40,208 nt of DNA, from the IMG/VR virus record IMGVR_UViG_2671180254_000014, one strand, 5' to 3'. A program made the position numbers and the translations under genes. Each line of letters begins with the position of its first letter. The first letter of the stretch is position 1. The notes under the pieces were generated by a model that made no database searches, was not told the DNA's origin, and worked only from the letters and a program-made list of their open reading frames with translations. This DNA is from a virus (taxonomy: Duplodnaviria > Heunggongvirae > Uroviricota > Caudoviricetes). Shown piece by piece: positions 6,444 to 40,208 of the stretch.

Positions 6444-6958
6444 TGTTCTTTAAAACATCAAACCCTTCCGCGCTGGCTGCGTGGCAAAAATACCAGCAGG
6501 ACTGCCAGAAAGTTAAGGATGAGGCAAAACGCCTTGAGGCCGTGCTGAATGTTGCGTGCCGGTCGGTATTTGTATCCGGTATCAGTGGATTTTGCTTTAA
6601 GGGACTGCGTTTTACGGAGGACAAATATCCTTTTCATCGCGACTTATGGCGAAAACCGACTGCGTCGAATGGCTGGAGCTGCACACCGCGCACATCACGT
6701 ATCCCTAAAACCCTGCGTGTTGCCTCTGATGAACTGAACAGTCTGTGGCGTGAATATTCGCCCGTCACGTATGCCAGAACCGATGCGCTGTTGTTCTGGC
6801 TGGGTATTGATTTCTCGGCAATCCTGTTTGGCCCTGTGAAGTGGTTCTGCGTTGACGATGTGATTTACCTTCAGTGCGGCGTAAAACCCGCAAAACAGAA
6901 AATGACCGAAATACTGTCTGATGAGTTTTATGCTGCTGAAAAGCGAGTCAGGGGGTGA
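6443..6958 (+). CDS. hypothetical early protein
   Basis: 171-aa ORF, start overlaps previous stop. Confidence 0.5.
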   Translation: MFFKTSNPSALAAWQKYQQDCQKVKDEAKRLEAVLNVACRSVFVSGISGFCFKGLRFTEDKYPFHRDLWRKPTASNGWSCTPRTSRIPKTLRVASDELNSLWREYSPVTYARTDALLFWLGIDFSAILFGPVKWFCVDDVIYLQCGVKPAKQKMTEILSDEFYAAEKRVRG

Positions 6959-6961
6959 TGC

Positions 6962-7513
6962 ATGATGAAATTACAACCCATGGGACTAAAAGGTCGCGCC
7001 CCCGCTCATGTCCGTCCGTGGACACCTGAAGAAGATGCGCTGCTGATTGCGCTTTATTCATCCACCCCGGTTAAGGATATTGCTGCCAGAATAAAAAGAA
7101 CTGTCTGGGCTGTATATAACCGGACTGGTGTATTGCGCAGTTCATACCCGGAGTTACTGAAATATAAACACCCAAGATTTACACCTGATGAAGATAAGTT
7201 TATTCGAAAAAATGCCAGAACAATGACCTGCCAGCAAATGGGAGAATATCTCGGACGTAATAAAGATTCTGTCAGATGTCGGGCAGGAATGATTGGTGCT
7301 GGATTAACAAAGTGCGGAGAGTTACGCCCCGGCACGCGCATATCTGATGATGATGTACGTCTTATACGTGCGCTGCGTGATTCCGATTACCCACGCCGTC
7401 TGTCATTCCGGGAAATTGGCGAAAAGTTTGGAATATCTGAACATTCTGCTCACGCAGTTTATTACCGTCGCCGGACTGCCGAGGACGCTGTATTACGGGA
7501 GTTAACGCCATGA
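6962..7513 (+). CDS. hypothetical protein with Myb/SANT-like W-x-EED repeats
   Basis: 183-aa ORF; WTPEEDALL and FTPDEDKFI repeats plus a basic C-terminal segment; domain call is by eye. Confidence 0.45.
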   Translation: MMKLQPMGLKGRAPAHVRPWTPEEDALLIALYSSTPVKDIAARIKRTVWAVYNRTGVLRSSYPELLKYKHPRFTPDEDKFIRKNARTMTCQQMGEYLGRNKDSVRCRAGMIGAGLTKCGELRPGTRISDDDVRLIRALRDSDYPRRLSFREIGEKFGISEHSAHAVYYRRRTAEDAVLRELTP

Positions 7514-7842
7514 TAACGACCTTATTTGTTGAATCAGATGAACCTCTTGTGTGTGCCGCCGGAATGCCGCTCTGTGGCGGAACGCTGACCGGCGTTTATT
7601 TCGGGGATTTGCGCGGTTATCCCTGGCATTCACTGGATGACGCATTTCCGCCTGATATGGAGGCTGTCGTGCTGATTGTTCAGTATGGTGACCAACAGGA
7701 ACTGCGCATCGGCCATATGGGGTATGAAGGCTTTTTTATTGATGAAGAAACCGGAGCCTGCCTTGAAGATGAGGACGGACAGGTGACGCACTGGTGCCAT
7801 CTTTCGGCCTTGCCGGAATTACAGGGGATACATAATGGATGA
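7510..7842 (+). CDS. hypothetical acidic early protein
   Basis: 110-aa ORF with ATGA overlap to previous gene. Confidence 0.45.
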   Translation: MITTLFVESDEPLVCAAGMPLCGGTLTGVYFGDLRGYPWHSLDDAFPPDMEAVVLIVQYGDQQELRIGHMGYEGFFIDEETGACLEDEDGQVTHWCHLSALPELQGIHNG

Positions 7843-7978
7843 GCAAATTGTTGAATGTCCCACCTGTGGAAATGAGGACCCGGAGTATCTGAAAGAGTGC
7901 CCACATTGTGGTGAGATAAAATGTAACCACTGCGATATGGGCGACGACACTGCATGTATAAATTGTGAGGATGAATAA
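7835..7978 (+). CDS. small Cys-rich zinc-ribbon-like protein (47 aa)
   Basis: Not in the ORF track (under 60 aa); ATG 7835, TAA 7976-7978; four CxxC pairs (CPTC, CPHC, CNHC, CINC); coupled to flanking genes. Confidence 0.4.
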   Translation: MDEQIVECPTCGNEDPEYLKECPHCGEIKCNHCDMGDDTACINCEDE

Positions 7979-7979
7979 T

Positions 7980-8267
7980 ATGGAAAAAGAAATCAAATTT
8001 GCGCCTAAATCTATCGACGAAGAACTGGCTAAAATCGGCATGCTTGAACGTATGCGGGACATTATCGAATATGCGATAAAAGAAAATCTTGCAGCCAGAG
8101 AAGCCCTTTTGATAATGGAGCGGGAGATTAACCTGATTAAGGATGCTGTATCTCTGGATAATAAAATAGCCCGCGAGGAATACGTTCGCCGCAGGCTCGG
8201 TGTTGATGGTTCAGCAATTCTTACATCTGAACATTATGCAAAAATTTTTAATCTTTTTCAGCGGTAA
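7980..8267 (+). CDS. hypothetical early protein
   Basis: ATG 7980 inside ORF 7965..8267, 1 nt after zinc-ribbon stop; GAGGA RBS. Confidence 0.45.
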   Translation: MEKEIKFAPKSIDEELAKIGMLERMRDIIEYAIKENLAAREALLIMEREINLIKDAVSLDNKIAREEYVRRRLGVDGSAILTSEHYAKIFNLFQR

Positions 8268-8487
8268 TCCCCATACAGGCCCGGAGATTGTCGAAATGCC
8301 AGTCGGTATTAATATATGAGCCATCCTGGATATCTTCTGTATTTTCCGGGGTAGAGTTTTTTTGAGCGAGATTGATAATATGTATTGCCTCCTCACGGGA
8401 AATCAGCCCCTTATCGAACAGGGTTACCATAAGATTTCCAGCCATTGTGAATGCGGCAACATCAAGTGCATTTTTTATATCTGACAT
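8248..8487 (-). CDS. hypothetical protein, reverse-oriented within early operon
   Basis: 79-aa minus-strand ORF with AAGGAAAAA RBS about 9 nt upstream of ATG; no plus-strand ORF covers 8268-8557. Confidence 0.4.
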   Translation of the reverse strand: MSDIKNALDVAAFTMAGNLMVTLFDKGLISREEAIHIINLAQKNSTPENTEDIQDGSYINTDWHFDNLRACMGITAEKD

Positions 8488-8543: not shown

Positions 8544-8557
8544 ATGGAGCCACGATA

Positions 8558-9043
8558 ATGAATCGCGCTTCCCTGATTACCTTAATACATGTCGCAAAAC
8601 GCGATCTACAGCTTGACCATGATACCTATACATCCGCGCTGCTGGCAGCCACCGGCAAATCCAGTTGCCGTGATATGTCACCCGGTGAGTTATCCCGCGT
8701 GCTGGATGTTTTCAAAAAACGCGGTTTTAAAGTGCGTCANNNNNNNNNNNNNNNNNNNNNNNNNNNNNNNNNNNNNNNNNNNNNNNNNNNNNNNNNNNNN
8801 NNNNNNNNNNNNNNNNNNNNNNNNNNNNNNNNNNNNNNNNNNNNNNNNNNNNNNNNNNNNNNNNNNNNNNNNNNNNNNNNNNNNNNNNNNNNNNNNNNNN
8901 NNNNNNNNNNNNNNNNNNNNNNNNNNNNNNNNNNNNNNNNNNNNNNNNNNNNNNNNNNNNNNNNNNNNNNNNNNNNNNNNNNNNNNNNNNNNNNNNNNNN
9001 NNNCAGCCCTGGATATGTCGGAACGTGCAGTGATGAGTTATGA
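8558..9043 (+). CDS. GemA-like protein (Mu gene 16 family), interrupted by N-run
   Basis: N-terminus MNRASLITLIHVAKRDLQLDHDTY... resembles Mu GemA; N-run 8740-9003 hides the middle, and the 3' end could be 9043 or 9083 depending on frame. Confidence 0.5.
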   Translation: MNRASLITLIHVAKRDLQLDHDTYTSALLAATGKSSCRDMSPGELSRVLDVFKKRGFKVRXXXXXXXXXXXXXXXXXXXXXXXXXXXXXXXXXXXXXXXXXXXXXXXXXXXXXXXXXXXXXXXXXXXXXXXXXXXXXXXXXXXXXXXXXSPGYVGTCSDEL

Positions 9044-9153
9044 GCGTGTTTGCAGGCTGTATGAAAAATCATTCCCCCGTTAACCCCAAATCCCGCCACA
9101 GCGCGGGATTTTTATTTTAAACTTGCCCTGTGTAATGATGACCGGAGGCGGGT

Positions 9154-9576
9154 ATGGCTGAAACACAGATGAGCATGTTTGGTGACAGCGAACAGCTGCA
9201 CGCGCTGATTGACCGTCTGGATGATATTCCTGATGATGAGCTGAAAAAGAACTGGCCCGGCACGCTGCGGGACCTGGTTGATGTGATCAGTGCTGAACTG
9301 CACCGTCAGGGGATTGAACCTGCTCAGGCGGGAATGCTTGCCCGTAAGGTTGCAGCCGCACAGGCCGGGTACATGGGCGGGCGTGGTTATTATCTCCCGG
9401 TCGGTGAATCCCTTTTCACCGAACTGCGCAATAATGAAATTTTTTCCCGCTGGAGCCAGGGCGAAAAAATTGAAACCCTGCGCCGCCACTACCAGATGTC
9501 AGAGACGCAGATTTACTCCGTTATCCGCAACCAGCGTCGCCTGCATCAGGAGCGCACGCAGCCCCGGCTTTTCTGA
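9154..9576 (+). CDS. Mor/C-family transcriptional activator
   Basis: 140-aa ORF; acidic N-terminus, central GGxxYYLPxG-like core and C-terminal helix-turn-helix region as in Mu Mor/C; only one family member seen. Confidence 0.8.
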   Translation: MAETQMSMFGDSEQLHALIDRLDDIPDDELKKNWPGTLRDLVDVISAELHRQGIEPAQAGMLARKVAAAQAGYMGGRGYYLPVGESLFTELRNNEIFSRWSQGEKIETLRRHYQMSETQIYSVIRNQRRLHQERTQPRLF

Positions 9577-17809: not shown

Positions 17810-18934
17810 ATGAAGACGAAAAACACGCCCAAACTTGCTTATGCCATTCTGAATGCCATCAGCCTGTCCGCAGACGGGGACGGTGACTGGTGTCAGATCA
17901 TGCCAGCCGGTCGGGTAAAGGCCCGTGACGGTCGCCCGGAAAAACCGGCGGAAGGCTGGCTGATTAACCATGCGGCCGTTGAGCGCATGGTATCCCGGGT
18001 TGTGGCGCTCAATCAGCCGGTAAAAATTGACTACAACCACCAGACCCTGATTAAGGGGCATCCGGCACCGGCTGCCGGTTTTGTCATGGCCTCACCGGAA
18101 AACTTCCGCTTCAGTGAAGAGCGGGGTTTTGAAGTGCGTCCGGACTGGAACCCTCCGGCCATTGAACACCTGCGCAATAACGAATTTCCCTGGTTTTCCC
18201 CGGTGATTGGTTATGACGAAATCACCGGTGAACCTGTTGAGCTTCGGATGCTGGCTATTACCGGTGACCCCGGTCTGACTGGCATGAATCCTGTCGCCGC
18301 ACTGTCGGCGGATGACCTTTATAACGCCTTAAACCCTCCTTTAAAGGACACCTCCATGAATGAGCAATTACGCCAGTTGCTGACGGCGCTCGGTCTGACC
18401 GTGGCCGACGGTGACGAATTTACACCGGAACTGGGCACGGCGGCGCTGTCTGCCCTTACCGGGATCAAAACCCGTGCGGATGCGCACGACACCCTGAAAA
18501 CGCAGGTTGCCAGCCTGTCGGCAGAGCTGGAAACCGCAAAAGGCACACCAACTGGCGGCACTATTGATCTGACGAAATACGTGCCCGTTGAGACGTATAA
18601 CGCCCTGCGTACCGAATATGTCGCGTTGTCGGCACAACACGGCAGCACCACGCTGGAGCAGTTGCTGGATAAGGCCGAGTCCGAAGGACGCATTTTCAAA
18701 AGCGAACGCGGATACATGGAAGGACTCGGACAACAGATTGGTGTTGCGGCACTTTCTGCACAGCTTGACGCCCGCCAGCCGGTTGCGGCTCTGACCACTC
18801 TTCAGACCGACACCGTAACCGTGCCGGATAAAAAGACCGCCACCGCTGCGCTGTCGGCTGAAGATATCGCCGCCGCCCATCTGCTGGGTAAAACCGAAGC
18901 CGAGTTCCTGAAAATGAAAGAGGAAATGCAATAA
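17810..18934 (+). CDS. head protease/scaffold protein (Mu I-like)
   Basis: 374-aa ORF preceding major head gene; Ala/Leu-rich coiled C-terminal half typical of scaffold. Confidence 0.75.
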   Translation: MKTKNTPKLAYAILNAISLSADGDGDWCQIMPAGRVKARDGRPEKPAEGWLINHAAVERMVSRVVALNQPVKIDYNHQTLIKGHPAPAAGFVMASPENFRFSEERGFEVRPDWNPPAIEHLRNNEFPWFSPVIGYDEITGEPVELRMLAITGDPGLTGMNPVAALSADDLYNALNPPLKDTSMNEQLRQLLTALGLTVADGDEFTPELGTAALSALTGIKTRADAHDTLKTQVASLSAELETAKGTPTGGTIDLTKYVPVETYNALRTEYVALSAQHGSTTLEQLLDKAESEGRIFKSERGYMEGLGQQIGVAALSAQLDARQPVAALTTLQTDTVTVPDKKTATAALSAEDIAAAHLLGKTEAEFLKMKEEMQ

Positions 18935-24042: not shown

Positions 24043-26100
24043 ATGGCAAAAAACCTGAAAGCCTCCCTGATTGTCGATTTACTCGGCAATATTTCCGCCA
24101 AATCCCGCCAGTGGTCACAGGAGCTGGGGGCATTCTCCCGTTCCGGCAGGACGGGGCTGGGTGGTCTTGGAAATGCAGCACGCCGGGCCGGTCAGGAAAC
24201 AGAGCTTGTTGGCTCCCGTATGCAGCGAACGCTTGCCGGTGTTCGTGGCAGTATCCGCACGGTAACGTCAGATTTTGACCGCCTGCAGGGCAGCATTACC
24301 GGCACCATCGGGCGGATAAGCAACCTTTACGGGATGCTGGCGGGAGGGGCTGCGGTCTACGGTTTTAATAAAGCCTTTATCCGCCCGGCCGCAGAGATGG
24401 AGAACTATATTCTGCGTCTCAACGCCATTAATCATGGCGATAAGGCAAAAACGGAAGCAGTGAAAGCCTGGGCGGTACAGAACGCCAAAGACACCACCTG
24501 GGGGCTGGCGGGGGTTATGCAGGAATACGCCTCCAGTCGCGGGTTTGGCATGAGTGACAGGGAAGCCCGTCGCTTTATTACCATGCTTCAGGATCAGGGC
24601 GGCTATCACGGCTGGTCACTGTCAGAGGCACAGGGTGCGTCCCTGCAACTCAAACAGATGTTTGCCCGCCAGAGTATCCAGGCAGCGGACGCCAATATTC
24701 TGACCGGATACGGGATTAACGTTTACCAGTTACTGGCCGATAAGCTGGGTGTAAACCAGAAGATCATCCGTGAGAAAGGCGAGAAAGGAAAACTGGGACC
24801 GGACAGCATTCGCCTGTTATTTCAGGTGATGGCCGAACAGGCAAAAGGTGCCCAGAAAAACGCCATGAACTCATGGACGGGAATGACGTCCATGATGGGT
24901 GACGTCTGGGATCAGTTTGCCCGTGACGTGATGGCGAAGGGACCGTTTGACAGCCTGAAAAAGAGCCTGAAAGGCTTTCTGGATTATGCCGATGCGGCAC
25001 AGAAAAGCGGCTTACAGGATAAGCTGGCCACACAGACGGCCTCAGCACTGAATCAGGGATTTGAGTATGCCAGAGATGCTGCGACCGGCTTTTACCGGGC
25101 CATTCAGAAAGTCAGGGAAACGCTTCAGGCACTGCGCGACGCCGGTTATGGCGATGCGCTGGATCGTATTGGTCAGGGTGCGCAGACCGCCGCAAAGTAC
25201 CTGATGTATATGTATCTCGCCTCCCGTGCGCTGAAGGTGCTCAGGTTTGCAGGGACGGGGGCATTACGTCTCGGCGCAACCCCCTTACGCTATGGCATGG
25301 CGATGACCTCCGTGCTGACGTCGCCCTTCCGCAAACCGCAGACCACTGTACCGGGAACGCAGCCCGGACGCGCTGGCCGGTTCCTGAATTTCCTTACCGG
25401 GGTAAATCCGGCTGCCGTTCAGCCCGTGCTGGTCACCAACTGGCCTGCGGGTGGCCTGGCCTCAGGTGGCGGGGATGTGGTGGTCAGCGGTGACGGCAAA
25501 ACCGTGCGCGGCCGTAAAAAACGCGGCCCCGGACGTGGACGGGGTGTCACGACCGTCGTGACTGCCGGTGAGCAACTGGCGGAGAGTGCCGGTAAACAGG
25601 GCTTCTTCGGTCGTATGATGAGCCGTGCCGGTGGTCTGCTAACGGCGGCCGGAAACCGCATGGGGCTGGGGCGTTTTGCCGGGCTGTTCCGTGGTGCCGG
25701 TCGGCTGGGTGGTGGTGCCCTGTGGGCCGGTGCCATGGCGGCTCCTGTACTGCTGGACAGCAGCGCCAGTGCAGCCGATAAAGCCGGTGCCGTGGGTTCT
25801 CTTGCCGGAAGTATCGCCGGTGGCGCGCTGGGGGCGGCTGCCGGTCCGGTCGGGGTTGCCATTGGTTCCACGGTGGGCAGCTATCTCGGTGATTATCTGG
25901 GGGGCTGGCTGACGCAGGCCTGGCAGAAACTGCGTGGCAGCAGTGACGAAAACGGCGGACAGGCCACCGCGAAAACCGCCGCACGGGTGGAGCTTGTGGC
26001 CCCTGAAGGCTGGCGGGCGCGCAGTATTGATGTGGATGATACCGCACAGCATGGCCTGGATGTGAACGTCTGGAACGGAGGGAACTATGGCCTCTACTGA
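24043..26100 (+). CDS. tail tape measure protein
   Basis: 685-aa ORF, Gly/Ala-rich C-terminal region; position after tube and chaperone. Confidence 0.8.
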   Translation: MAKNLKASLIVDLLGNISAKSRQWSQELGAFSRSGRTGLGGLGNAARRAGQETELVGSRMQRTLAGVRGSIRTVTSDFDRLQGSITGTIGRISNLYGMLAGGAAVYGFNKAFIRPAAEMENYILRLNAINHGDKAKTEAVKAWAVQNAKDTTWGLAGVMQEYASSRGFGMSDREARRFITMLQDQGGYHGWSLSEAQGASLQLKQMFARQSIQAADANILTGYGINVYQLLADKLGVNQKIIREKGEKGKLGPDSIRLLFQVMAEQAKGAQKNAMNSWTGMTSMMGDVWDQFARDVMAKGPFDSLKKSLKGFLDYADAAQKSGLQDKLATQTASALNQGFEYARDAATGFYRAIQKVRETLQALRDAGYGDALDRIGQGAQTAAKYLMYMYLASRALKVLRFAGTGALRLGATPLRYGMAMTSVLTSPFRKPQTTVPGTQPGRAGRFLNFLTGVNPAAVQPVLVTNWPAGGLASGGGDVVVSGDGKTVRGRKKRGPGRGRGVTTVVTAGEQLAESAGKQGFFGRMMSRAGGLLTAAGNRMGLGRFAGLFRGAGRLGGGALWAGAMAAPVLLDSSASAADKAGAVGSLAGSIAGGALGAAAGPVGVAIGSTVGSYLGDYLGGWLTQAWQKLRGSSDENGGQATAKTAARVELVAPEGWRARSIDVDDTAQHGLDVNVWNGGNYGLY

Positions 26101-27445
26101 CACGCCGGGGCGTGGCTCCTTTCGTGGCGTACCGTTCCTGGTTTATCAGGAGCAGCGGGAACGGGGCGGACGTAACATTGTGCGCCGTGAATACCCACTG
26201 CGTGAAAGCGGCGGTGCGGATGATCTGGGGCCAAAACTCCCGGAGTTCACATTCACGGTTCTAGTGACCGGAGACGATCTTCAGACACAGCGAAGCCGCC
26301 TGCGTGATGCGCTGCGTGCACCCGGTGCCGGTGAACTGATGCACCCGGATTACGGCACGTTAAACGTGCTGATAAACAGCTTTGAAAGCCGTTATAACGC
26401 CAGCGAGCAGGGAACGGTTGAGTTCACGATCAACGTGATCCCCGCCAGTGACGATACCGCCCCTTCGGTGGCAGAAGATACGGCAGCTGCGCTGGAGCAG
26501 AAAAGCGGCTCAGCAATGAATCAGCTGTTTAACACACTTTCAGACGGCTGGACGGTGATTTCAGACGGTCTGCATGATGTACAGGCCATGACCGACACCA
26601 TCAGCGATAAAATTGATGCGCTGGAGAATGCCGTTTCAGGGATGGGGATTGTGCAGGATATCAGTGCCTTTACGGCCAGTTTTACTGCCCTGAAAGGGAA
26701 TGCCGCCGCCCTGATTAATGCGCCCCGTCGCATGGCTGAATCGCTGGCCGGAATGTTTGCCGTGCTGGCGGGGCTGCCCGGCGATCCTTCCCTGTCGCTG
26801 ACCGGAAAAGCCGGAACGCCGTCCGGCAGCCTGACCACAAACCGTGACAGCACGACAGAGCAGGCCATGCCGCAGCTGTACCGCACACTTTCTTCCCTGC
26901 GTTACACCCTCAGCGAACAGGATGATCCGCAGCGCCTGATTGGTCTGACGCCTGCGGCACAGAACAATATCCGTCTGCTGCGGAGCGTCATGCAGAGTGC
27001 AGCCCTGGTGTCGCAGGCGCAGACGGTCGGAAAACTGCTGGATCAGGTCATCCGGCAGAATACGACGCACGTTCAGGATACTGACCGTGCGGGCGGACTG
27101 GCCTGGCTGGAAAGTTCTGCTGATGTGCAGCGTATCAACCGGGATTTGAGCGATGCCATGGAACAACAGGTGCTGGATCTGTCCGCACAGGGCCATACCG
27201 GCACCGCCCTTGCATTACGTGATGCAGGGCTTGCGCTGACAGAAGATTTAACCACGCGGAGCGTGCATCTTCCCGGTGCTTTTCAGGTCATGGTGCGAAC
27301 CACCGAACCGGCACTGGTCACGCTGTACCGTGCCACCGGTAACAGCCGCCGCTGGCAGTATTTTGTCCGCAGAAACAATATCCCCGATCCGGTTTTTGTT
27401 CCGGGTGGCCGCCGCGTGGAGGTGATCAGTGAGCAGCAGGATTGA
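26087..27445 (+). CDS. DNA circularization protein N-like tail protein
   Basis: 452-aa ORF after tape measure; Mu N position. Confidence 0.75.
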   Translation: MASTDTPGRGSFRGVPFLVYQEQRERGGRNIVRREYPLRESGGADDLGPKLPEFTFTVLVTGDDLQTQRSRLRDALRAPGAGELMHPDYGTLNVLINSFESRYNASEQGTVEFTINVIPASDDTAPSVAEDTAAALEQKSGSAMNQLFNTLSDGWTVISDGLHDVQAMTDTISDKIDALENAVSGMGIVQDISAFTASFTALKGNAAALINAPRRMAESLAGMFAVLAGLPGDPSLSLTGKAGTPSGSLTTNRDSTTEQAMPQLYRTLSSLRYTLSEQDDPQRLIGLTPAAQNNIRLLRSVMQSAALVSQAQTVGKLLDQVIRQNTTHVQDTDRAGGLAWLESSADVQRINRDLSDAMEQQVLDLSAQGHTGTALALRDAGLALTEDLTTRSVHLPGAFQVMVRTTEPALVTLYRATGNSRRWQYFVRRNNIPDPVFVPGGRRVEVISEQQD

Positions 27446-29587: not shown

Positions 29588-30669
29588 TGCCTTATCAGCC
29601 TTTACCGCTGGCACAGTTAATCACGCAGACACAGCAGGATATCAGCCAGCGCCTGCCCGGCTCGCAGCCGGGTGTGAATGAAACCACCCTGAATGCCATT
29701 GCTTACGCTCAGGCAGGGTTATCTGCTCAGGAGCATGAGCATCTGGCCTGGATTGCGCGTCAGATCATCCCGACCGAAGCCGATGAAGCCGAACTGCTGA
29801 AACACTGTGCATTCTGGGGCGTCATGCGTAAGCCTGCCTCTCGGGGGGACGGGCCGGTTCAGCTGATGCTGACCACGGATGCGGGGATCAAGGAAGGTGT
29901 GCTTCTCCAGCGAAGTGATGGCGTGGTTTACCGTATCACCACCTCCCTGACCGGTAAGGCCGGTACGCTGAATGTCAGTGTGGAAGCCGAAAGTGCCGGT
30001 CGTGCGGGGAATGCCCCGGCAGGGACAAAACTGACATTTATCACACCGCAGGCGGGGATCAACCAGACGGCCACGGTGACCGGAACGGGGATCACCGGTG
30101 GTGCGGATGTGGAAACCGTGCCGGAGCTGCTTTCCCGTCTGGTTTTCCGGGTGCAGAATCCACCGTCCGGCGGCACGCAGTATGATTTTGAACGCTGGGC
30201 GCGTGAAGTGCCGGGCGTGACGCGGGCATGGTGCCGCCCGGAATGGCCGCAGGCGGGCAGCGTGGGGGTAACGTTTGTTCAGGATAATAACCCGGATATT
30301 TTCCCCGGTGACGGTGATGTTCAGCGGGTGGCGGATTATATCCGCAGTCATGATGATCCGGCGACCGGCCAGCCTGTCGGACAGCCTCTGGGGCCGACGG
30401 TGACCGTGTTTAAACTGACCAATAAGCCGGTGCCCTTCAGCATCAGGATCATCCCGAAAACACCGGAGAATCAGGCGGCCGTAAAACAGGCGCTGACCGA
30501 CCTGTTGTATAACGAATCCCGGCCCGGCGGTCTGGTTCTGCCGTCGTCTTTCTGGCGGGCGGTGGCAGGGGTGAAAAATCTGGAGGATTTTGAAGTGCGC
30601 AGTCCGCTGACGTCAGTTCAGGCGGGAGACAGTGAGCTGCTGACGGTAGGAGAAATCACATGGCTGTAA
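29587..30669 (+). CDS. baseplate J-like protein (Mu gp47-like)
   Basis: 360-aa ORF, start overlaps previous stop. Confidence 0.8.
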   Translation: MPYQPLPLAQLITQTQQDISQRLPGSQPGVNETTLNAIAYAQAGLSAQEHEHLAWIARQIIPTEADEAELLKHCAFWGVMRKPASRGDGPVQLMLTTDAGIKEGVLLQRSDGVVYRITTSLTGKAGTLNVSVEAESAGRAGNAPAGTKLTFITPQAGINQTATVTGTGITGGADVETVPELLSRLVFRVQNPPSGGTQYDFERWAREVPGVTRAWCRPEWPQAGSVGVTFVQDNNPDIFPGDGDVQRVADYIRSHDDPATGQPVGQPLGPTVTVFKLTNKPVPFSIRIIPKTPENQAAVKQALTDLLYNESRPGGLVLPSSFWRAVAGVKNLEDFEVRSPLTSVQAGDSELLTVGEITWL

Positions 30670-31220
30670 CCCTGACCCCGCATCAGCGCGCCCTGTTGCA
30701 GTTACTGCCTGACGGGCTGGCATGGGACAAGCGTCCGTCATCCGTACTGGCATCATTATGTCTGGGCCTCAGTCATTCGACAGCGCGTGTATCCTGGACG
30801 GGTAAACAGCTGCTTGCCGAGCGTTTCCCTGACACGTCGCGCCTGCTGCTGGAAGACTGGGAGCGTTATCTCGGGCTTCCCGAGTGTGATATGGCCGGAG
30901 CCACCCTCACGGAGCGACAGCGTTATGCCGGAAATAAATACCGGATGAAGCCCTCGCTGAACCGTGAATTTTATATCCGGTTTGCGGCGGAGTTTGGTTA
31001 TCAGATTGACATTCAGCCCTCACCGGATTCGCAGTGGGTCAGTATTGTCACGATTAACAGTGAAACCGGCTACCGGAATATGAATGTGCTGGATGATATT
31101 CTCACGCCGCTGCGTATTTATGAAGGCGGTGCGCTGGAATGTATTCTGAACCGTTATAAGCCTGCATGGCAGACGTTTATTTACGTTTATGCAAACAGCC
31201 ATGAAGAGGAGACTATTTAA
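30660..31220 (+). CDS. tail protein (Mu gp48-like)
   Basis: 186-aa ORF between baseplate J and tail fibre. Confidence 0.7.
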   Translation: MAVTLTPHQRALLQLLPDGLAWDKRPSSVLASLCLGLSHSTARVSWTGKQLLAERFPDTSRLLLEDWERYLGLPECDMAGATLTERQRYAGNKYRMKPSLNREFYIRFAAEFGYQIDIQPSPDSQWVSIVTINSETGYRNMNVLDDILTPLRIYEGGALECILNRYKPAWQTFIYVYANSHEEETI

Positions 31221-32096
31221 TGTTTCATGTTGATAATAATTCCGGCGTGGCGAATATGCCTGCGCTGGCACCGGCGCAGAGTAATACCACCACCTGGTTT
31301 ACCGAAGGTGACGGACAAAAAGGTATCAGCTGGATTGGTCAGGACTGGCTGAATATTCTCCAGGCCGAACTGCTGAATATTCTGGCTGAAGCCAGTATTC
31401 AGCCGGATAAGGCGCAGTTAAACCAGCTTACGCTGTCCATTAAAGCCATTATCGCTGCGAATGCCTTTTCCCGGAAAAATAACCTGAAAGAAATTGCTGA
31501 TGCCGGTGCGGAGGCCCAGCGTCTGGCCCGTGGTTATCTTGGTCTGGGGACGCTTGCCACAAAAAACAGTCTTGGTCCCGCTGACGTTAATGCCCTGGCG
31601 AAGGATCAGAATCTCGCCGACCTGGAGAATAAGGGAACCGCCCGTAATAATCTGGATGTTTACAGNNNNNNNNNNNNNNNNNNNNNNNNNNNNNNNNNNN
31701 NNNNNNNNNNNNNNNNNNNNNNNNNNNNNNNNNNNNNNNNNNNNNNNNNNNNNNNNNNNNNNNNNNNNNNNNNNNNNNNNNNNNNNNNNNNNNNNNNNNN
31801 NNNNNNNNNNNNNNNNNNNNNNNNNNNNNNNNNNNNNNNNNNNNNNNNNNNNNNNNNNNNNNNNNNNNNNNNNNNNNNNNNNNNNNNNNNNNNNNNNNNN
31901 NNNNNNNNNNNNNNNNNNNNNNNNNNNGCCCGGAACATGGGAAAGCTGGGATCTGAATCTGGGGGGCGGCAATGTTCTTACCGGAATTAAAGTACAGGAT
32001 GTCGGTAAGAATACGGCAGATAACGTCGGCGGCGTGTATTACCGGCCGTTGCAGTATCTGTTAAATGGAGCATGGGTGACGGCTGCAAGTATATAA
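31220..32096 (+). CDS. tail fibre protein (constant N-terminal part plus currently joined variable C-terminus), interrupted by N-run
   Basis: N-terminal 148 aa to 31665, N-run 31666-31927, C-terminal 56 aa to TAA 32094-32096 in a different frame, so the gap length is not true. Confidence 0.65.
31531..31665 (+). repeat. left inverted repeat of invertible tail-fibre segment (at least 135 bp)
   Basis: Identical to the reverse complement of 33146-33280; ends at an N-run so true extent unknown. Confidence 0.85.
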
Positions 32097-32105
32097 TGAT
32101 ATTCA

Positions 32106-32123
32106 GAAGGCCTTCCGGCCTTC
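32106..32123 (+). terminator. candidate terminator hairpin after tail-fibre gene
   Basis: GAAGGCC-ttcc-GGCCTTC followed by TTTATTA; between convergent fibre and fibre-assembly genes. Confidence 0.4.
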
Positions 32124-32127
32124 TTTA

Positions 32128-32649
32128 TTACTGTGGCTGCTCAGGCCATTTAATGGCGTTAAATTCAGCTTCTGTTTTAATGGCGGGTAGTTCCATTTTC
32201 TTCACCTGACTGATGTATGCCATCCATTGGGTAAGTGCTGCTCTGTCTTCATCGCTGATGGTGCCCAGTTGTAGCTCCGTTCTCCAGTCATTAATTTTTT
32301 CATATGCCTGATTAAGATATGACTGGCGCATTGCTTCCAGTTTTCTTGCGTAGTTAACCGGAATACGGGAGATTATGCCATTATCAAACTTCCAGTTTCC
32401 TGAAATATCCGTGCCTTCAGGGAGTTCATCGACCTCAACCACAGAAAACCCCGCAGGATACAGCGCCGAGGCGTCCTGTGATATTGAGCAGATAACGCCG
32501 CTGTCAGGTGTTATGCAAAGTTTATATTTTTTGGTGAATAATGGCAGGGATTCGTAGAAATCCTTACCATCTTCACTCTGGAAATACTGAACATTATTAC
32601 CATATGGCATATTTTCAGGATAATAACGGGTTATATTTTTTAGTTCCAT
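32128..32649 (-). CDS. tail fibre assembly protein (Mu U/U'-like)
   Basis: 173-aa minus-strand ORF directly downstream of the alternate fibre C-terminus on the same strand. Confidence 0.75.
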   Translation of the reverse strand: MELKNITRYYPENMPYGNNVQYFQSEDGKDFYESLPLFTKKYKLCITPDSGVICSISQDASALYPAGFSVVEVDELPEGTDISGNWKFDNGIISRIPVNYARKLEAMRQSYLNQAYEKINDWRTELQLGTISDEDRAALTQWMAYISQVKKMELPAIKTEAEFNAIKWPEQPQ

Positions 32650-32700
32650 AAAATCCTCCTGGAAATAAATCTGTTTTAAAATATATTATTTACTGACTAT

Positions 32701-33280
32701 TTATAACTGAGATACCGTAATCCATGTACCTCCGACTAATTTTTGCAGGGGTCTGAATGCTATAAAATCGTTTGAAGCATCAACTTTACTGTCAATCTGC
32801 AGGCCTGCCATAACATTACCGTACGCAGAGTAATATGCCCCACCGTACATTACCTGCCTGTTCTCTGCTCCCAGCCTGATATCCTGGATATATCGGGAAT
32901 CCGCATCCTGCTGTGTTATACCAGAAGTGATGTTTATGTCCTGCGTCCCGTCAAAGGGAACCCCATTAATATTTCTTGGGGTGGCGAGTCTATTCGCGGC
33001 AACGGCGGTGCCGTCCGATGGCAGAGCATTCGCCGCCCTGTTTACCGTTTCCCGTAAACCGACGTTATCGATAAAAGCCCCTTTATCCGGAATGTCTGCG
33101 CCGTTCTGCTCCCTGCGCAGGTAACGGTTATCACCTTCGCTTTTGCTGTAAACATCCAGATTATTACGGGCGGTTCCCTTATTCTCCAGGTCGGCGAGAT
33201 TCTGATCCTTCGCCAGGGCATTAACGTCAGCGGGACCAAGACTGTTTTTTGTGGCAAGCGTCCCCAGACCAAGATAACCA
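32701..33280 (-). CDS. alternate tail-fibre variable C-terminal segment (S'-like), 5' end in N-run
   Basis: Hand translation of minus strand from 33280: [44 protein letters not shown] (identical to residues 105-148 of the plus-strand fibre) then a divergent ~149 aa ending ...[10 protein letters not shown], stop at 32701-32703; not in ORF track because it lacks an ATG. Confidence 0.7.
33146..33280 (-). repeat. right inverted repeat of invertible tail-fibre segment
   Basis: Reverse complement identical to 31531-31665; abuts N-run 33281-33331. Confidence 0.85.
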
Positions 33281-33331
33281 NNNNNNNNNNNNNNNNNNNN
33301 NNNNNNNNNNNNNNNNNNNNNNNNNNNNNNN

Positions 33332-33834
33332 GTGCAGGATGTGAGCTGTTTTTCGAAGACAGAATAAGCGGTAAGACAAGGGAGCGTCCCGGACTTAAAC
33401 GCGCATTAAAGCGACTCCGGCCAGGGGATACCCTGCTGGTCTGGAAACTGGATCGCCTTGGACGCAGTATGCAGCACCTTGTCCTTTTAACAGAAGAACT
33501 CCGGCAACGCGGCGTTAACTTCCGCAGCATTACGGACAATATTGATACATCCACTCCCATGGGACGTTTCTTTTTCCATATAATGGGCGCGCTGGCGGAA
33601 ATGGAGCGGGAACTCATTATTGAACGTACACGCGCGGGTCTTGCTGCTGCCCGTGCTCAGGGGCGTCATGGCGGCAGACCTCAGAAACTGACAGAGAAAG
33701 AGCGGGAGCAAATCGCCCGTTTGCTGGCTAATGGCGAGTCCCGTAAACAAATCGCACTGATATTTGATATTGGCCTTTCCACCCTTTATCGTTATTTTCC
33801 TGCCTCACCAGCTCCGTCACCAAAAGTACCGTGA
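33332..33834 (+). CDS. gin: serine DNA invertase (Gin/Hin/Pin/Cin family), N-terminus lost in N-run
   Basis: In-frame translation from 33334 gives ...ELFFEDRISGKTRERPGLKRALKRLRPGDTLLVWKLDRLGRSMQHL... then GALAEMERELIIERT... and a C-terminal helix-turn-helix; catalytic Ser region falls in the gap. Confidence 0.85.
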
Positions 33835-33919
33835 CGCTTTTTTGAATTTCCGCAAAACACATATTTTTCAGCGGTCGCTATTCTGACTCTGTTTAATTCA
33901 GAAACAGGCAGAAAAGACG

Positions 33920-35974
33920 ATGTCAGACTCCAAGTGGAAAATGCTCTCCGCCATGCCCGGAGAGTTTTCAGTCAAGGTTGCCGGTGGCACGGTGGCATTT
34001 ATTGAAAGCCCTTTCCGCCCTTCGGGTAATAAAGGGGGGATCACCTTCGCAGACTGCGTGATCCGCTTCAGCACGAAAGAGCCATTATGGGTAATGCCGG
34101 TATCCGGTAATCCCAGTGCAGAAATCACCAGTTCAGGCGTGACTGGCATCATTCCAATCACATCTGACGTGGCCGGAACGCTCACGCCCTCCGACTGGAA
34201 TGCACCGGATAACGCCGGGCCTTCCGGTAGCACGAATGGCAGCAGTTCAGAGCCGGAATATTACTTTGTTGTCATTCTCGCGGGTCAGTCAAATGGCATG
34301 GCCTACGGCGAGGGGCTGCCGTTACCGGATTCGTTTGACCGCCCGGACCCACGCATTAAGCAACTGGCACGCCGCAGTACGGTAACGCCCAACGGTACGT
34401 CGTGTACATACAACGACATCATTCCGGCAGACCACTGCCTGCATGATGTTCAGGATATGAGCGGGATAAACCACCCGAAAGCTGATCTGGCAAAAGGCCA
34501 GTACGGGACTGTCGGTCAGGGGTTGCATATTGCCAAAAAACTGCTTCCCTATATCCCACAGAATGCCGGGATACTTCTGGTGCCCTGTTGTCGTGGCGGG
34601 TCAGCATTCACCACTGGAGCCGACGGCTCATTCAGTGAGGCCAGCGGTGCTTCCGCTGATTCTTCACGCTGGGGGGCCGGTAAACCTCTGTATCAGGACC
34701 TGGTAAGCCGCACCAAAGTCGCGCTGGCGAAAAACCCGAAAAACAAACTTCTGGCTGTGGTCTGGATGCAGGGAGAGGCAGACCTTGCCTCAGGAAGCCA
34801 GCAGCATAATAGTTTATTCACGGCCATGGTTCAGCAGTTCAGAACTGACCTGGCTCCGCTTGCTGCGCAGTGCGTGAGTGGAAATGCCACCACGGTGCCG
34901 TGGATTTGCGGTGATACCACGTATTACTGGAAAAACGCTGGCACCGATAAATATGAGGCAGTATACGGTGGCTACAAAGGCAAGGAAGCACAGAAAATTT
35001 TCTTTGTACCGTTCCTGACGGATGAGAATGGACAGAGCACGCCAACGAATGCTCCGGCGGAAGACCCGGATATTGTGGCTGTCGGGTATTACGGTGCAGC
35101 ATCCCGAACCCAGGGCAGTTTTGTTTCGACACAGCGTGACAGCCATTTCAGCTCATGGGCACGCAGGGGCGTCATTTCAGACCGTCTGGCCTCAGCTATT
35201 ATGCTCCATGCAGGGCGCACGGCTGAACTGATGCGCGGGCAGACCGTGACACCACCGGATGAGAAGCCGTCACCTGATACACCATCAAAACCGTCCACGC
35301 CACCCGCAGACACCACGACGATGAGTACGCTATTTGCTTACCGGGCATCTGAGTCTGAAGGACGGTTGACACCACAGGGTTGGGCTGCCGGAGGTGGCAA
35401 GGCTCAAATCGTGGATGATGCCGGAGCCAGCGGGGGTAAGGCAATGAAACTGACCAAGGAAACAGGAAGAGCCCCCTGGTACCTTGAGCATGATGCTGGT
35501 AATGGTGCGGACCTGCTGGGTAAAGGTGGTCTTGTCAGTTGTCGTTTTAAACTCGATGGCGCGCTTACGGCTAATCAGTACGCACTGGCGCTGTACTGGC
35601 CGGTTTCTGCCCTGCCGCAAGGGGTTACTCTGGAAGGAAATGCCGGTCATAACCTGCTGGCATCGTTCTACGTACAGAGCGATGCCACAGACCTTAACGT
35701 GATGTATCACAAAGGAAACACGGCGCAGAACACGAAGCTGGGGTCATTCGGCGCATTTAATAACGAATGGCATACGCTGGGCTTCCGTTTTGCCGGTAAC
35801 AACAGTATTGAGGTGACGCCGGTCATTGATGGTAAGGACGGGACACCATTCATGCTGTCGCAGTCTCCGGTCGGCACGTTTACGGCAGACAAGTTGCGCG
35901 TGACCGATATCACTAAAAATGCGACTTACCCGGTACTGATTGACAGTATCGTGGTGGAAGTGAATAACGCGTAA
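33920..35974 (+). CDS. SASA/SGNH-type carbohydrate esterase (sialate O-acetylesterase-like) with C-terminal beta-sandwich-like domain
   Basis: 684-aa ORF; GQSN motif at residues 122-125 (YYFVVILAGQSNGMAYGEG) and downstream WMQGEAD block; Ser/Pro/Thr-rich linker then ~200-aa Gly/Asn-rich C-terminal domain. Confidence 0.55.
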   Translation: MSDSKWKMLSAMPGEFSVKVAGGTVAFIESPFRPSGNKGGITFADCVIRFSTKEPLWVMPVSGNPSAEITSSGVTGIIPITSDVAGTLTPSDWNAPDNAGPSGSTNGSSSEPEYYFVVILAGQSNGMAYGEGLPLPDSFDRPDPRIKQLARRSTVTPNGTSCTYNDIIPADHCLHDVQDMSGINHPKADLAKGQYGTVGQGLHIAKKLLPYIPQNAGILLVPCCRGGSAFTTGADGSFSEASGASADSSRWGAGKPLYQDLVSRTKVALAKNPKNKLLAVVWMQGEADLASGSQQHNSLFTAMVQQFRTDLAPLAAQCVSGNATTVPWICGDTTYYWKNAGTDKYEAVYGGYKGKEAQKIFFVPFLTDENGQSTPTNAPAEDPDIVAVGYYGAASRTQGSFVSTQRDSHFSSWARRGVISDRLASAIMLHAGRTAELMRGQTVTPPDEKPSPDTPSKPSTPPADTTTMSTLFAYRASESEGRLTPQGWAAGGGKAQIVDDAGASGGKAMKLTKETGRAPWYLEHDAGNGADLLGKGGLVSCRFKLDGALTANQYALALYWPVSALPQGVTLEGNAGHNLLASFYVQSDATDLNVMYHKGNTAQNTKLGSFGAFNNEWHTLGFRFAGNNSIEVTPVIDGKDGTPFMLSQSPVGTFTADKLRVTDITKNATYPVLIDSIVVEVNNA

Positions 35975-38200: not shown

Positions 38201-38332
38201 ACGCTTAAAAACTCATTCTAAAACTCAAAAGAAAAGCGCCGATTTAGTATCAAATAAGTTGCGTATCGGTGTTTTTCAGCGGTATCAAATGAAATGCAAA
38301 TCGGTATCAAAAAAATCGCCGCGCTATAATCA

Positions 38333-38644: not shown

Positions 38645-40208
38645 GTGCGCATGTGGGATGTCATTGATTTATCGCGCTGGCAGTTTGCTCTGACCGCGCT
38701 GTATCACTTTTTATTTGTACCCCTTACCCTGGGGCTGATTTTTTTGCTGGCTATCATGGAAACCATTTACGTGGTCACCGGCAAAACAATCTACCGCGAT
38801 ATGACGCGCTTCTGGGGTAAGCTCTTCGGTATCAACTTTGCTCTTGGCGTGGCTACCGGCCTGACCATGGAGTTTCAGTTTGGTACTAACTGGTCATTCT
38901 ATTCCAACTATGTGGGCGATATTTTTGGCGCACCGCTGGCGATGGAAGCATTAATGGCCTTCTTCCTCGAATCCACCTTTGTCGGGCTTTTCTTCTTCGG
39001 CTGGCAGCGGCTGAATAAATACCAGCACCTGCTGGTGACGTGGCTGGTGGCGTTCGGTTCAAATCTCTCTGCATTGTGGATATTGAATGCCAACGGTTGG
39101 ATGCAATACCCGACCGGTGCGCATTTTGATATCGACACCCTACGTATGGAGATGNNNNNNNNNNNNNNNNNNNNNNNNNNNNNNNNNNNNNNNNNNNNNN
39201 NNNNNNNNNNNNNNNNNNNNNNNNNNNNNNNNNNNNNNNNNNNNNNNNNNNNNNNNNNNNNNNNNNNNNNNNNNNNNNNNNNNNNNNNNNNNNNNNNNNN
39301 NNNNNNNNNNNNNNNNNNNNNNNNNNNNNNNNNNNNNNNNNNNNNNNNNNNNNNNNNNNNNNNNNNNNNNNNNNNNNNNNNNNNNNNNNNNNNNNNNNNN
39401 NNNNNNNNNNNNNNNNNNNNTGGCGGCGATGGAAGGGGAGTGGCAAACGGAACCTGCTCCTGCACCGTTCCATGTGGTTGCCTGGCCGGAACAGGATCAA
39501 GAGCGTAACGCCTTTGCCATCAAAATTCCCGCGCTGTTAGGGATCCTCGCCACTCACTCATTAGATAAAACCGTGCCGGGTCTGAAAAATTTGATGGCTG
39601 AAACCTACCCACGCTTGCAACGCGGACGTATGGCCTGGCTGTTAATGCAGGAAATATCGCAAGGCAATCGTGAGCCGCATGTGTTGCAGGCATTCCGGGA
39701 ACTGGAAGGTGACCTGGGCTACGGCATGTTGCTCTCCCGCTATGCGCCGGATATGAATCATGTCACAGCCGCACAGTACCAGGCGGCGATGCGTGGCGCG
39801 ATACCTCAGGTTGCGCCGGTATTCTGGAGTTTCCGCATCATGGTGGGCTGTGGTTCCCTGCCGCTACTGGTGATGCTGATTGCGCTTGTCCAGACGCTGC
39901 GTGGCAAAATCGACCAGCATCGCTGGGTGCTGAAAATGGCGCTCTGGAGTTTGCCGTTGCCGTGGATTGCGATTGAAGCCGGGTGGTTTATGACCGAGTT
40001 TGGTCGTCAGCCGTGGGCGATACAGGACATCTTACCGACATACTCCGCGCACTCCGCTTTAACCACAGGACAACTGGCTTTCTCACTGATCATGATCGTA
40101 GGGCTTTACACCCTGTTCTTAATCGCCGAAGTCTACCTGATGCAGAAATATGCCCGTCTGGGGCCGAGCGCGATGCAGAGTGAACAACCGACGCAGCAAC
40201 AGGGGTAA
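38645..40208 (+). CDS. appC: cytochrome bd-II ubiquinol oxidase subunit I (AppC/CbdA), interrupted by N-run
   Basis: N-terminus [28 protein letters not shown]...[22 protein letters not shown] is cytochrome bd subunit I, AppC paralog rather than CydA; N-run 39155-39420; stop at 40206-40208. Confidence 0.85.

Follow-up and report, generated by a model that had tools for sequence, protein, structure and literature searches.

A compact Gin-type invertible tail-fibre segment in a Mu-like Escherichia coli prophage and the apparent scaffold duplicate of its flipped junction

The locus among described fibre switches

The systems closest to the locus described here are the G segment of phage Mu, with the invertase Gin, and the C segment of phage P1, with Cin. 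In both, a constant 5′ part of the tail-fibre gene lies outside the invertible segment and alternative 3′ ends lie inside it. The Mu segment measures 3.06 kb, codes for variable parts of ~335 aa with a long shaft part and for two assembly proteins, U and U′, and contains internal repeats of ~34–41 bp (41 nt at 93% identity as computed by us). The classic repeat size of P1 is 0.6 kb. The e14 P segment is also a fibre-gene segment of a prophage, in which inversion by a Din-family serine invertase (Pin/PinQ) gives alternative fibres; it spans 1797 bp in a defective lambdoid element, and a host-defence role has been assigned to its inverted product (PMC12529663). An invertible host-specificity region with genes unlike those of Mu was noted already in 2009 for Sp18 of E. 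coli O157:H7 Sakai (PMC2669165).

The window, i.e., the whole stretch of 40,208 nucleotides that was analysed, contains most of a Mu-like (Sp18-type) transposable E. coli prophage. Its positions 454–38328 align at 95–99.9% with an annotated Mu-like prophage, the annotations of which include Mu transposase, an AAA ATPase, Gam, Mor, the Mu gpT head subunit, gp46/gp47/gp48-type baseplate proteins, Com and Mom. The gene set and order, together with differing insertion sites (hyaF–appC in the window versus rhsC/ybfB in JE86-ST05), are those of the Sp18-type Mu-like transposable prophages. No tRNA gene was found in the window. Using a 3.3-kb query that extended from the gp48-like gene through the invertase, matches to some extent were obtained in 233 of 5426 complete E. 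coli genomes, mostly at 80–95% identity. In the phage collection there was no full-length DNA match to the region; the only matches, confined to the first 1006 nt, were to two Stx-phage records that contain a Mu-like insertion.

The initial annotation had described a Mu G-segment-like host-range switch, and the comparison with Mu agrees with it. The order of the gp48-like baseplate wedge gene, fibre gene, invertible segment, invertase and com/mom is that of Mu, and the constant part of the fibre gene (Sc) is homologous to Mu S residues 1–191. The crossover falls at the equivalent position of the fibre gene, where the inner half-site and the sequence that follows it (GGTTTACrGGAAACGGTAAACAGGGC) are near-identical. 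The invertase shares 74% identity with Gin over 184 aa and starts ~65 nt downstream of the right site, both sites are gix-like, and both orientations occur (see below). Unlike the Mu G segment, however, the segment here is only 1.32 kb long, its variable parts are ~117–120 aa without the long shaft part, it has one assembly gene, and its internal repeats are ~155 bp and imperfect. In addition, a 684-aa esterase/DUF6645 gene and small genes are located between the invertase and com/mom.

In its repeats the locus resembles P1, where they are likewise far longer than the 26-bp site, are located within the segment and code for the common start of both fibre ends. The arms in a P1-like record (165 nt at 95% and 200 nt at 98%) are of the same kind as those found here. 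The greatest similarity of tip A is to a P1-type fibre tip (55% identity), and the assembly protein is closest to P1 U′ (37%), followed by Mu U′ (32%). P1 differs in having two assembly genes and much longer fibres, and in being a plasmid prophage, not a transposable phage. Sp18 is a prophage of the same type, with the region ~86% identical in O157:H7 genomes and with the same layout of fibre, one tfa, silent fibre end, recombinase and then the DUF6645 gene. The O157:H7 copy that was read yielded neither the left site nor an intact fibre gene, so this copy looks decayed, whereas the lineage of the window is intact in closed relatives.

Segment architecture and orientations

In closed relatives, the invertible segment of ~1.32 kb lies between two inverted 26-bp gix-like sites, each consisting of 12-bp half-sites around a 2-bp core, with matching cores. 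In the relative L001, the left site occupies 7078–7103 (TTATCGATAACG TC GGTTTACGGGAA) and the right site 8395–8420 (TTCCCGTAAACC GA GGTTTTCAGGAA), and both sequences recur in L005 and L006. The sites are near Mu gixL/gixR; at the homologous position, Mu gix reads TTATCCAAAACC TC GGTTTACAGGAA, to be compared with the left site of L001. In the window, the left site is hidden in gap 1, and the visible site stands in the Sc–Sv′ (flipped) configuration (Table 1). The true inverted repeats are ~155 bp long, imperfect (~88–90%) and internal to the segment (L001 7078–~7235 versus 8263–8420). It had been noted earlier, of the 135-bp pair, that the repeats are far longer than the 34 bp of Mu; the true repeats, too, are longer than those of Mu (~155 bp versus 41 nt). 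A Gin-family invertase would exchange strands at the central dinucleotide of both sites and so flip the segment.

Table 1. Features of the invertible fibre segment and its surroundings in the window
Feature	Position	Strand	Details
Tail-fibre constant part Sc, visible 5′ portion, codons 1–148	31220–31665	+	100% identical to L001 6561–7006
Scaffold gap 1	31666–31927		262 N; abuts inner end of left 135-nt copy
Variable part A (Sv, tip A), 3′ end	31928–32096	+	in frame from 31929; ends in YYRPLQYLLNGAWVTAASI and stop
Terminator-like GC hairpin between convergent coding units inside segment	32105–32124	+	8-pair stem, then TTATTACTGT
Tail-fibre assembly (chaperone) gene, 173 aa, U′/Tfa type	32128–32649	-	Pfam Caudo_TAP, E 5e-19
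Variable part B (Sv′, tip B)	32701–33060	-	crossover to stop codon 32701–32703
Right arm of true inverted repeat	32918–33074		begins at recombination site; mapped via L001; partner in gap 1
Only recombination site visible in window	33049–33074		26-bp gix-like; TTCCCGTAAACC GA CGTTATCGATAA, core GA 33061–33062
Redundant second copy of part of Sc	33063–33280	-	equivalent to L001 6872–7089; contains 33146–33280
Scaffold gap 2	33281–33331		51 N, not 52; abuts outer end of right 135-nt copy
Serine DNA invertase (Gin/Cin/Pin family), codons 24–190 and stop	33332–33834	+	100% identical to L001 8556–9058

In the closed relatives, the constant 5′ part of the fibre gene comprises ~177 codons outside the segment. 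It can be joined to two alternative 3′ ends of ~117–120 codons, each of which consists of a common start of ~45 residues, encoded by the ~155-bp imperfect repeats, and a distinct, receptor-binding tip of ~70 residues. Both fusions are intact ORFs of 293 and 296 aa with residues 1–~177 in common. Fibre homology was drawn from PDB sequence searches and from tblastn against phages, while a Pfam search of both fibre versions returned no family. Residues 1–191 match the Mu tail fibre S (5yvq_A, E 9e-46; PDB sequence search). Tip A is homologous to the tip of the phiTE short tail fibre (9cuy_c, E 4e-10) and to the Mu S/S′ tip, and tip B matches the Mu S tip, residues 435–502 (5yvq_A, E 4e-10); both match the tips of Mu S/S′, P1 S and P2 H. 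The alternative fibre C-terminus and the assembly gene on the minus strand, with the invertase to their right, were all found as first annotated.

The full-length invertase of a relative has an N-terminal resolvase domain and a C-terminal HTH (Pfam Resolvase, E 1.6e-51; HTH_7, E 4.9e-15), as expected for a small serine recombinase akin to Gin and Cin, and aligns without gaps to Gin and P1-type Cin. Residues 25–190 of the window invertase are identical to those of this relative; the first full codon is at 33334, and the first 23 codons fall within gap 2. The closed relatives have the catalytic Ser9 of the YxRVSTxxQ motif (MLIGYIRVSTNDQ); the corresponding codon of the window lies within the run of 51 N. 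The 5′ part of the invertase gene was scanned for a Fis-dependent recombinational enhancer, and its nucleotides 1–90 show raised third-codon-position identity (0.65–0.85 to a sister allele and 0.50–0.65 to gin). A Fis-like 15-mer at nt 71–85, a weak motif, is kept in this invertase gene, gin and cin, and the distance to the next match is 54 nt versus the canonical 48 nt.

Both orientations of the segment exist among closed genomes, 16 being unflipped (tip A) and 6 flipped. The strains DLI.5a, TOE17 and AST46 have two prophage copies each, one per orientation. The inverted construct matches closed genomes collinearly in one piece (H28 and H29 with 100% coverage; H30 with 99.9% identity), and the window's own flipped left junction switches at the site core. 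Based on homology and on the orientation polymorphism among genomes, we infer inversion activity and the host ranges of the two tips, and a possible Fis dependence.

The perfect inverted repeat in the scaffold

A repeat search recovered the exact inverted pair of 135 nt reported initially (31531–31665 and 33146–33280; 100% complementary, arms 1480 nt apart). It is far above chance, the second-best inverted pair in the region being only 25 nt at 76%. The left copy is the final stretch of Sc before gap 1, and each copy abuts a run of N, as had been observed. These long perfect repeats had been assigned to the switch itself, and this assignment does not hold. The visible 135 nt lie in Sc, wholly outside the invertible segment and 84 nt upstream of the crossover, and are single-copy in each of the five closed relatives examined (L001, L002, L004–L006). 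In the same five, 65 nt separate the right site from the invertase ATG, without a copy of Sc; in place of the redundant copy, closed genomes read GGTTTTCAGGAAAGCCAGG and run into the invertase start.

The origin of the right-hand copy is indicated by comparison with the closed genome NZ_AP022815.1. The minus strand of the window from 33280 to 32690 (591 nt) has 0 mismatches to the in-silico inverted left junction of this genome, and the change of partner within these 591 nt falls exactly at the visible gix-like site. The window follows the right-hand interior of the reference up to the core GA, including the Sv′-diagnostic base at 33025, and beyond the core it is the reverse complement of the reference left exterior. 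The identity over 591 nt and the switch at the gix-like site indicate that one contig carries the flipped-orientation junction. Presumably, the middle contig (31928–33280) reads through the right-hand site into Sc and so records the flipped Sc–Sv′ junction, while the scaffold sets this contig in the unflipped order. Because a flipped-junction contig was placed in the unflipped order, Sc would be written twice, in opposite orientations, with each copy ending at a contig end.

We therefore interpret the 135-bp perfect inverted repeat as a draft-assembly duplicate of the flipped junction and not as a genomic feature. The explanation as a whole, a compact segment homologous to that of Mu with a repeat that duplicates its flipped junction, is in our view very probably correct.

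The scaffold could also be literally right, with a real perfect inverted duplication of Sc (at least 135 bp, perhaps ~340 bp) beside the invertase, left by an aberrant rearrangement in which the right site was lost together with the 5′ end of the invertase gene. This is the sequence as deposited, and the window minus strand does match the reverse complement of L001 6872–7213 over 342 nt. Nevertheless, the extra sequence starts exactly at the gix-like crossover dinucleotide and equals a simple inversion product, both repeat ends coincide with contig ends, and the 51 nt of gap 2 are too short for the 150 nt between the site core and invertase codon 24. Moreover, the structure is absent from the closed relatives examined, and the best 16 matches leave 33080–33280 unmatched collinearly. 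We consider such a duplication highly improbable.

Given a flipped-junction duplicate, the sequenced culture most likely held both orientations of the segment. Of the two causes initially proposed for the gaps, orientation heterogeneity or repeat collapse, it is the suspicion about orientation that gains support, since the right copy is the flipped junction. The sole junction actually sequenced is the flipped left one, and both unflipped junctions and the right flipped junction lie within runs of N. The left contig stops 84 nt short of the crossover, an offset that a simple branch-point break leaves unexplained.

It should be noted that a uniformly flipped genome with a mis-oriented contig would look identical in the scaffold. 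This sub-variant, in which the scaffolder placed the middle contig backwards and no population heterogeneity is needed, agrees with the flipped left junction being the only one sequenced. In addition, the contig 31928–33280, when reverse-complemented, aligns collinearly with a flipped genome along its full length, its overlap with the left contig being exactly the 135 nt, and the assembly is also gapped in unique DNA, so that breaks here need no special cause. However, a perfect overlap of 135 nt without conflict ought to have been merged by the assembler, and the size of gap 1 (262) is near the real unflipped distance (267), which suggests linking information for the unflipped order. A uniformly flipped genome is possible but, on balance, rather unlikely, and a culture of mixed orientation is preferred.

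The gaps can be largely filled from the closed relatives. Gap 1, written as 262 N, corresponds there to 267 nt, which contain the final 84 nt of Sc, the left gix-like site, the left internal-repeat arm and the start of tip A. Gap 2 hides the outer half of the right gix-like site, the ~65 nt invertase upstream region and invertase codons 1–23, and its 51 N match no arrangement exactly. Two further runs of N (8740–9003 and 39155–39420) are scaffold gaps within unique sequence. For all three runs whose real length could be read from closed genomes, the scaffold gives a wrong size (262 vs 267, 264 vs 251 and 266 vs 252 nt). The possibility that the N-runs are exact masks was rejected, as these three are off by 5–14 nt and disrupt reading frames, among them that of appC. 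The fibre ORF from 31220 resumes in another frame from 31929, as the initial annotation had noticed; this frame change is no more than a gap-size error, and the 267 real nt, which lie wholly inside the fibre ORF, restore the frame.

The single assembly gene

A single Caudo_TAP gene is present in the segment, both in the window and in five closed relatives that represent two lineages, so there is no separate U or U′ for each fibre end, whereas Mu and the P1-like record have two assembly genes. The protein also matches Mu U (PDB 5yvq_B, E 4e-16); Mu Tfa (U) and the Mu fibre were solved in the one PDB entry, 5yvq. That only one assembly gene is visible had been pointed out initially, and it is no effect of the gaps. 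A search of the closed gap for a second gene had been suggested at the outset; the 267 nt behind gap 1 lie entirely within the fibre ORF, restore its frame and contain no such gene. The one-chaperone asymmetry is thus a genuine and conserved trait.

The assembly gene shares its orientation with tip B. A search for a promoter that would express it in either orientation found no sigma-70-like match on the minus strand upstream of the gene; the single minus-strand promoter-like match falls within the artefactual copy of Sc. Late transcription would yield either a fibre with tip A alone, or a fibre with tip B together with the chaperone. We tentatively propose a chaperone-asymmetric switch, in which tip B and Tfa are expressed in one orientation and the homologous tip A without a cognate Tfa in the other. 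Inversion might then also toggle chaperone dependence or decoration, or switch infectivity on and off or establish a lysogen-protective state, although we regard this proposal as unlikely. To our knowledge, such toggling has not been described for Din-family fibre switches. The phiTE paper makes no mention of chaperones for the phiTE short tail fibre.

According to a functional alternative, the segment is an on/off switch rather than a switch between two host ranges: only tip B with the chaperone is infective, and fibres with tip A are unfolded, absent or serve the lysogen, e.g., by receptor block as reported for StfE2, the product of the e14 P segment. In the tip-A orientation, the lone Tfa gene is indeed antisense to late transcription and has no promoter-like site in front of it. 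Tips of the Mu S, P1 S and P2 H family normally adjoin a Tfa gene, and a defence role of an inverted fibre segment has a precedent (PMC12529663). On the other hand, the tip A ORF is intact in every relative read, including a diverged yet intact allele in a lineage of 92% identity, and closed genomes more often have the segment in the tip-A orientation (16 vs 6). Furthermore, many other tfa genes of E. coli prophages could supply the chaperone in trans. We find the on/off alternative doubtful. The tip-A fibre would have to fold without an assembly protein of its own, a small point of Tfa dependence in the tip family of Mu S, P1 S and P2 H.

For genome scanning, the locus provides a worked example of how an invertible segment in a draft scaffold can mimic a long perfect inverted repeat at gaps. 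The diagnostic features are that the repeat changes partner exactly at the recombinase site and that it is identical to what results when the segment of a closed relative is inverted in silico. On the sequence evidence, we regard the system as a Gin-type invertible tail-fibre segment of the ordinary kind, carried by a Mu-like E. coli prophage. With respect to mechanism it is nothing new biologically, but a compact and widespread variant of the Mu G segment.

Scaffold structure and sequence gaps

The repeat search of this region gave a single outstanding inverted pair, 31531-31665 and 33146-33280 (135 nt, 100% complementary). The left copy adjoins a 262-N run with its inner end, and the right copy adjoins a 51-N run (33281-33331) with its outer end; the latter run hides the catalytic serine of the invertase. 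The repeat, the abutting N-runs and the change of the fibre reading frame, as described in the initial annotation, were all found again in the sequence. Complete E. coli genomes contain a Mu-like prophage to which the region was 99.8-100% identical, and NZ_AP022815.1 (loci L001 and L007) was used as the closed reference.

Features of the fibre region in the window and in the closed reference locus L001
Feature	Window	Strand	L001	Remark
Left flank	30660-31665		6001-7006	100% identical
Gap 1	31666-31927 (262 N)		7007-7273 (267 nt)	gap
Middle contig	31928-33079		7274-8424	collinear
End of middle contig	32939-33280		6872-7213	reverse complement
Right flank	33332-34000		8556-9224	100% identical
Fibre ORF	start 31220	+		resumes past the first N-run in another frame
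Caudo_TAP assembly gene	32128-32649	-		173 aa
Second fibre C-terminus	stop codon 32701-32703	-
Serine recombinase gene	33332-33834			start inside the second N-run
Left site			7078-7103	within fibre gene; TTATCGATAACG TC GGTTTACGGGAA
Right site			8395-8420	65 nt ahead of invertase ATG at 8486; TTCCCGTAAACC GA GGTTTTCAGGAA

The 267 nt behind gap 1 lie wholly within the fibre ORF of the reference (L001 6561-7442, 293 aa) and restore its reading frame. Therefore, the frame change, previously taken as a sign of orientation heterogeneity or repeat collapse, is a gap-size error, and gap 1 does not contain the second assembly gene that might have been sought there.

Two further N-runs of near-equal length are located in unique sequence, one (8740-9003, 264 N) in the early/middle region of the prophage on the gp16/Mor side and the other (39155-39420, 266 N) inside the chromosomal appC gene. 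In closed genomes they correspond to 251 and 252 nt, respectively, so the appC frame is broken artificially. Because the sizes differ, the N-runs are ordinary scaffold gaps of estimated length, exact masks being ruled out, and the presence of an N-run is not in itself diagnostic of a repeat.

Origin of the 135-nt repeat

The reference locus was inverted in silico between the two site cores, and the window was compared with the product. The minus strand of the window from 33280 to 32690 (591 nt) matched the left junction of the inverted construct with 0 mismatches. In a three-way alignment, the window tracks the right-hand interior of the reference as far as the core GA (33061-33062), and base 33025, which distinguishes the two copies of the internal repeat, is of the Sv' type (Sv and Sv' being the alternative 3' parts of the fibre gene, ending in tips A and B). 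Beyond the core GA, the window tracks the reverse complement of the left exterior, i.e., the fibre constant part (Sc). This switch of partner indicates that contig 31928-33280 records the flipped Sc-Sv' junction, which largely bears out the earlier suspicion that an orientation problem underlies the gaps. Judging from these alignments, a contig with the flipped junction was evidently placed by the scaffold in the unflipped order, and the constant part was written twice.

Read literally, the scaffold would place a true inverted copy of Sc next to the invertase. However, this leaves 51 nt for the 150 nt between the site core and invertase codon 24, and the catalytic serine would be deleted. Moreover, the closed relatives examined carry the 135-nt stretch only once and have the upstream region of the invertase after the right site, and the stretch lies wholly outside the invertible segment, at least 84 nt upstream of the crossover. 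The long perfect repeat is thus an assembly artefact and not, as had been proposed, a feature of the switch.

The flipped contig may have come from a culture containing both orientations or from a purely flipped genome in which the middle contig was mis-oriented. Once reverse-complemented, this contig runs collinearly with a flipped genome throughout and shares 135 nt with the left contig, but an assembler would normally join contigs that overlap in this way, and the 262 N given to gap 1 come near the 267 nt expected for the unflipped order. We therefore consider a mixed population somewhat more likely. Under either scenario, the repeat is redundant scaffold sequence.

The invertible segment and its invertase

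Both orientations occur in closed genomes. The unflipped order was found in 16 of them. The flipped construct matched closed genomes collinearly and in one piece (H28 and H29 with 100% coverage, H30 with 99.9% identity, also H31 and H32), with six genomes at ≥80% coverage. The strains DLI.5a, TOE17 and AST46 each carry two prophage copies, one per orientation. In a flipped closed genome (L005), a 296-aa fibre is annotated, followed by the assembly gene on the same strand.

The two 26-bp sites of L001 are in inverted orientation with complementary central dinucleotides; the same sites are present in the relatives L005 and L006. They closely resemble Mu gixL (TTATCCAAAACC TC GGTTTACAGGAA) and gixR (TTCCTGTAAACC GA GGTTTTGGATAA) at homologous positions. 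The core-to-core segment is about 1.32 kb versus 3.06 kb in Mu. Immediately inside each site lies an imperfect inverted repeat of ~155 nt (~88-90% identity), divided by the repeat search into parts of 86 nt (93%) and 50 nt (84%). P1-type segments also have internal repeats longer than the site (165-200 nt in the P1-like record read). The repeat codes for the first ~45 residues common to both alternative fibre ends, which terminate in differing tips of ~70 residues. Tip A, ending in ...YYRPLQYLLNGAWVTAASI, is a distant homolog of tip B (31% identity over 42 aligned residues), and both are homologous to the tips of Mu S/S', the phiTE short tail fibre, P1 S and P2 H. For the constant part, the match is to residues 1-191 of Mu S (E 9e-46). 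The invertase shares 74% identity with Gin, and its alignment with Gin and a P1-type Cin is free of gaps. By its recombinase type, gix-like sites, both orientations and constant/variable fibre architecture, the system is a Din-family invertible fibre segment, in agreement with the Mu G-like switch initially proposed.

The invertase contig starts exactly at the 15-mer GTGCAGGATGTGAGC (window 33332-33346, invertase gene nt 71-85), which is conserved, with 0-1 changes, at the corresponding codon positions of a sister allele, Mu gin and a P1-type cin. It matches a loose Fis-site pattern and may be a part of the recombinational enhancer.

An invertible host-specificity region with genes unlike those of Mu has already been described for the related prophage Sp18 (Asadulghani et al., PMC2669165). 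In the Sp18-like copy of E. coli O157:H7 ECP19-198 (L004, 3061-4978), no left gix-like site turned up in a motif search, the annotation lacks a full-length fibre gene, and the silent frame read from the right site ends after two codons; this switch therefore appears decayed. In L007 (12766-18668), PGAP marks frameshifts in com and in the genes for tape measure, DNA circularization, tail tube and tail sheath proteins. The window has an uninterrupted DNA circularization gene (26087-27445, 452 aa). The frameshifts may reflect a defective reference copy or long-read indel errors.

Single assembly gene and surrounding prophage

Similarity to the JE86-ST05 prophage, located in the rhsC/ybfB region as expected of a transposable phage, begins at 454, inside the transposase region, and ends at 38328; E. 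coli hyaF-appC similarity begins at 38323, placing the right end at ~38323-38328 and the left end outside the window. Positions 1-453, 5382-5901 and 17969-18353 were unaligned (E 1e-20 threshold), the remainder being 95-99.9% identical; these stretches resemble mosaic patches, situated in the early region and close to the genes for head protease and virion morphogenesis. Directly after the invertase lies a 684-aa gene (33920-35974, +) encoding a carbohydrate esterase domain of the sialate-O-acetylesterase type (SASA, residues 117-312) and, at the C-terminus, DUF6645. DUF1378 and DUF826 genes and one hypothetical gene come next, ahead of com/mom. Mu has no counterpart at this place. The product could be a virion or lysogenic-conversion protein that deacetylates glycans.

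The single assembly gene noticed initially is real: the window and five closed relatives each have a single Caudo_TAP gene in the orientation of tip B, and the relatives represent two lineages (identity about 86-92% and 98-100%). Mu and the P1-like record have two each, and the S-U/U'-S' symmetry of Mu and P1 is not reproduced here. The nearest counterparts of the assembly gene are of the U' type (37% for P1 U', 32% for Mu U'), and it also matches Mu U in PDB 5yvq, in which fibre S is present as well. A terminator-like hairpin separates it from the convergent tip-A end, and a search for a promoter-like site able to express it in the tip-A orientation found none. Since tips of the Mu S/P1 S/P2 H family normally adjoin a Tfa gene, tip A is left without its expected partner. 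Nevertheless, the ORF of tip A is uninterrupted in every relative read, L006 has a diverged but intact allele, and the tip-A orientation is the commoner one. We infer that tip A is probably functional and would fold unaided or use Tfa supplied in trans. The segment may instead have an on/off or lysogen-protective role, with a precedent in the P segment of e14, where the product of inversion blocks adsorption of T2 (PMC12529663). Overall, the element is a compact example of a well-known switch type, the most conspicuous oddity of which is an assembly artefact.
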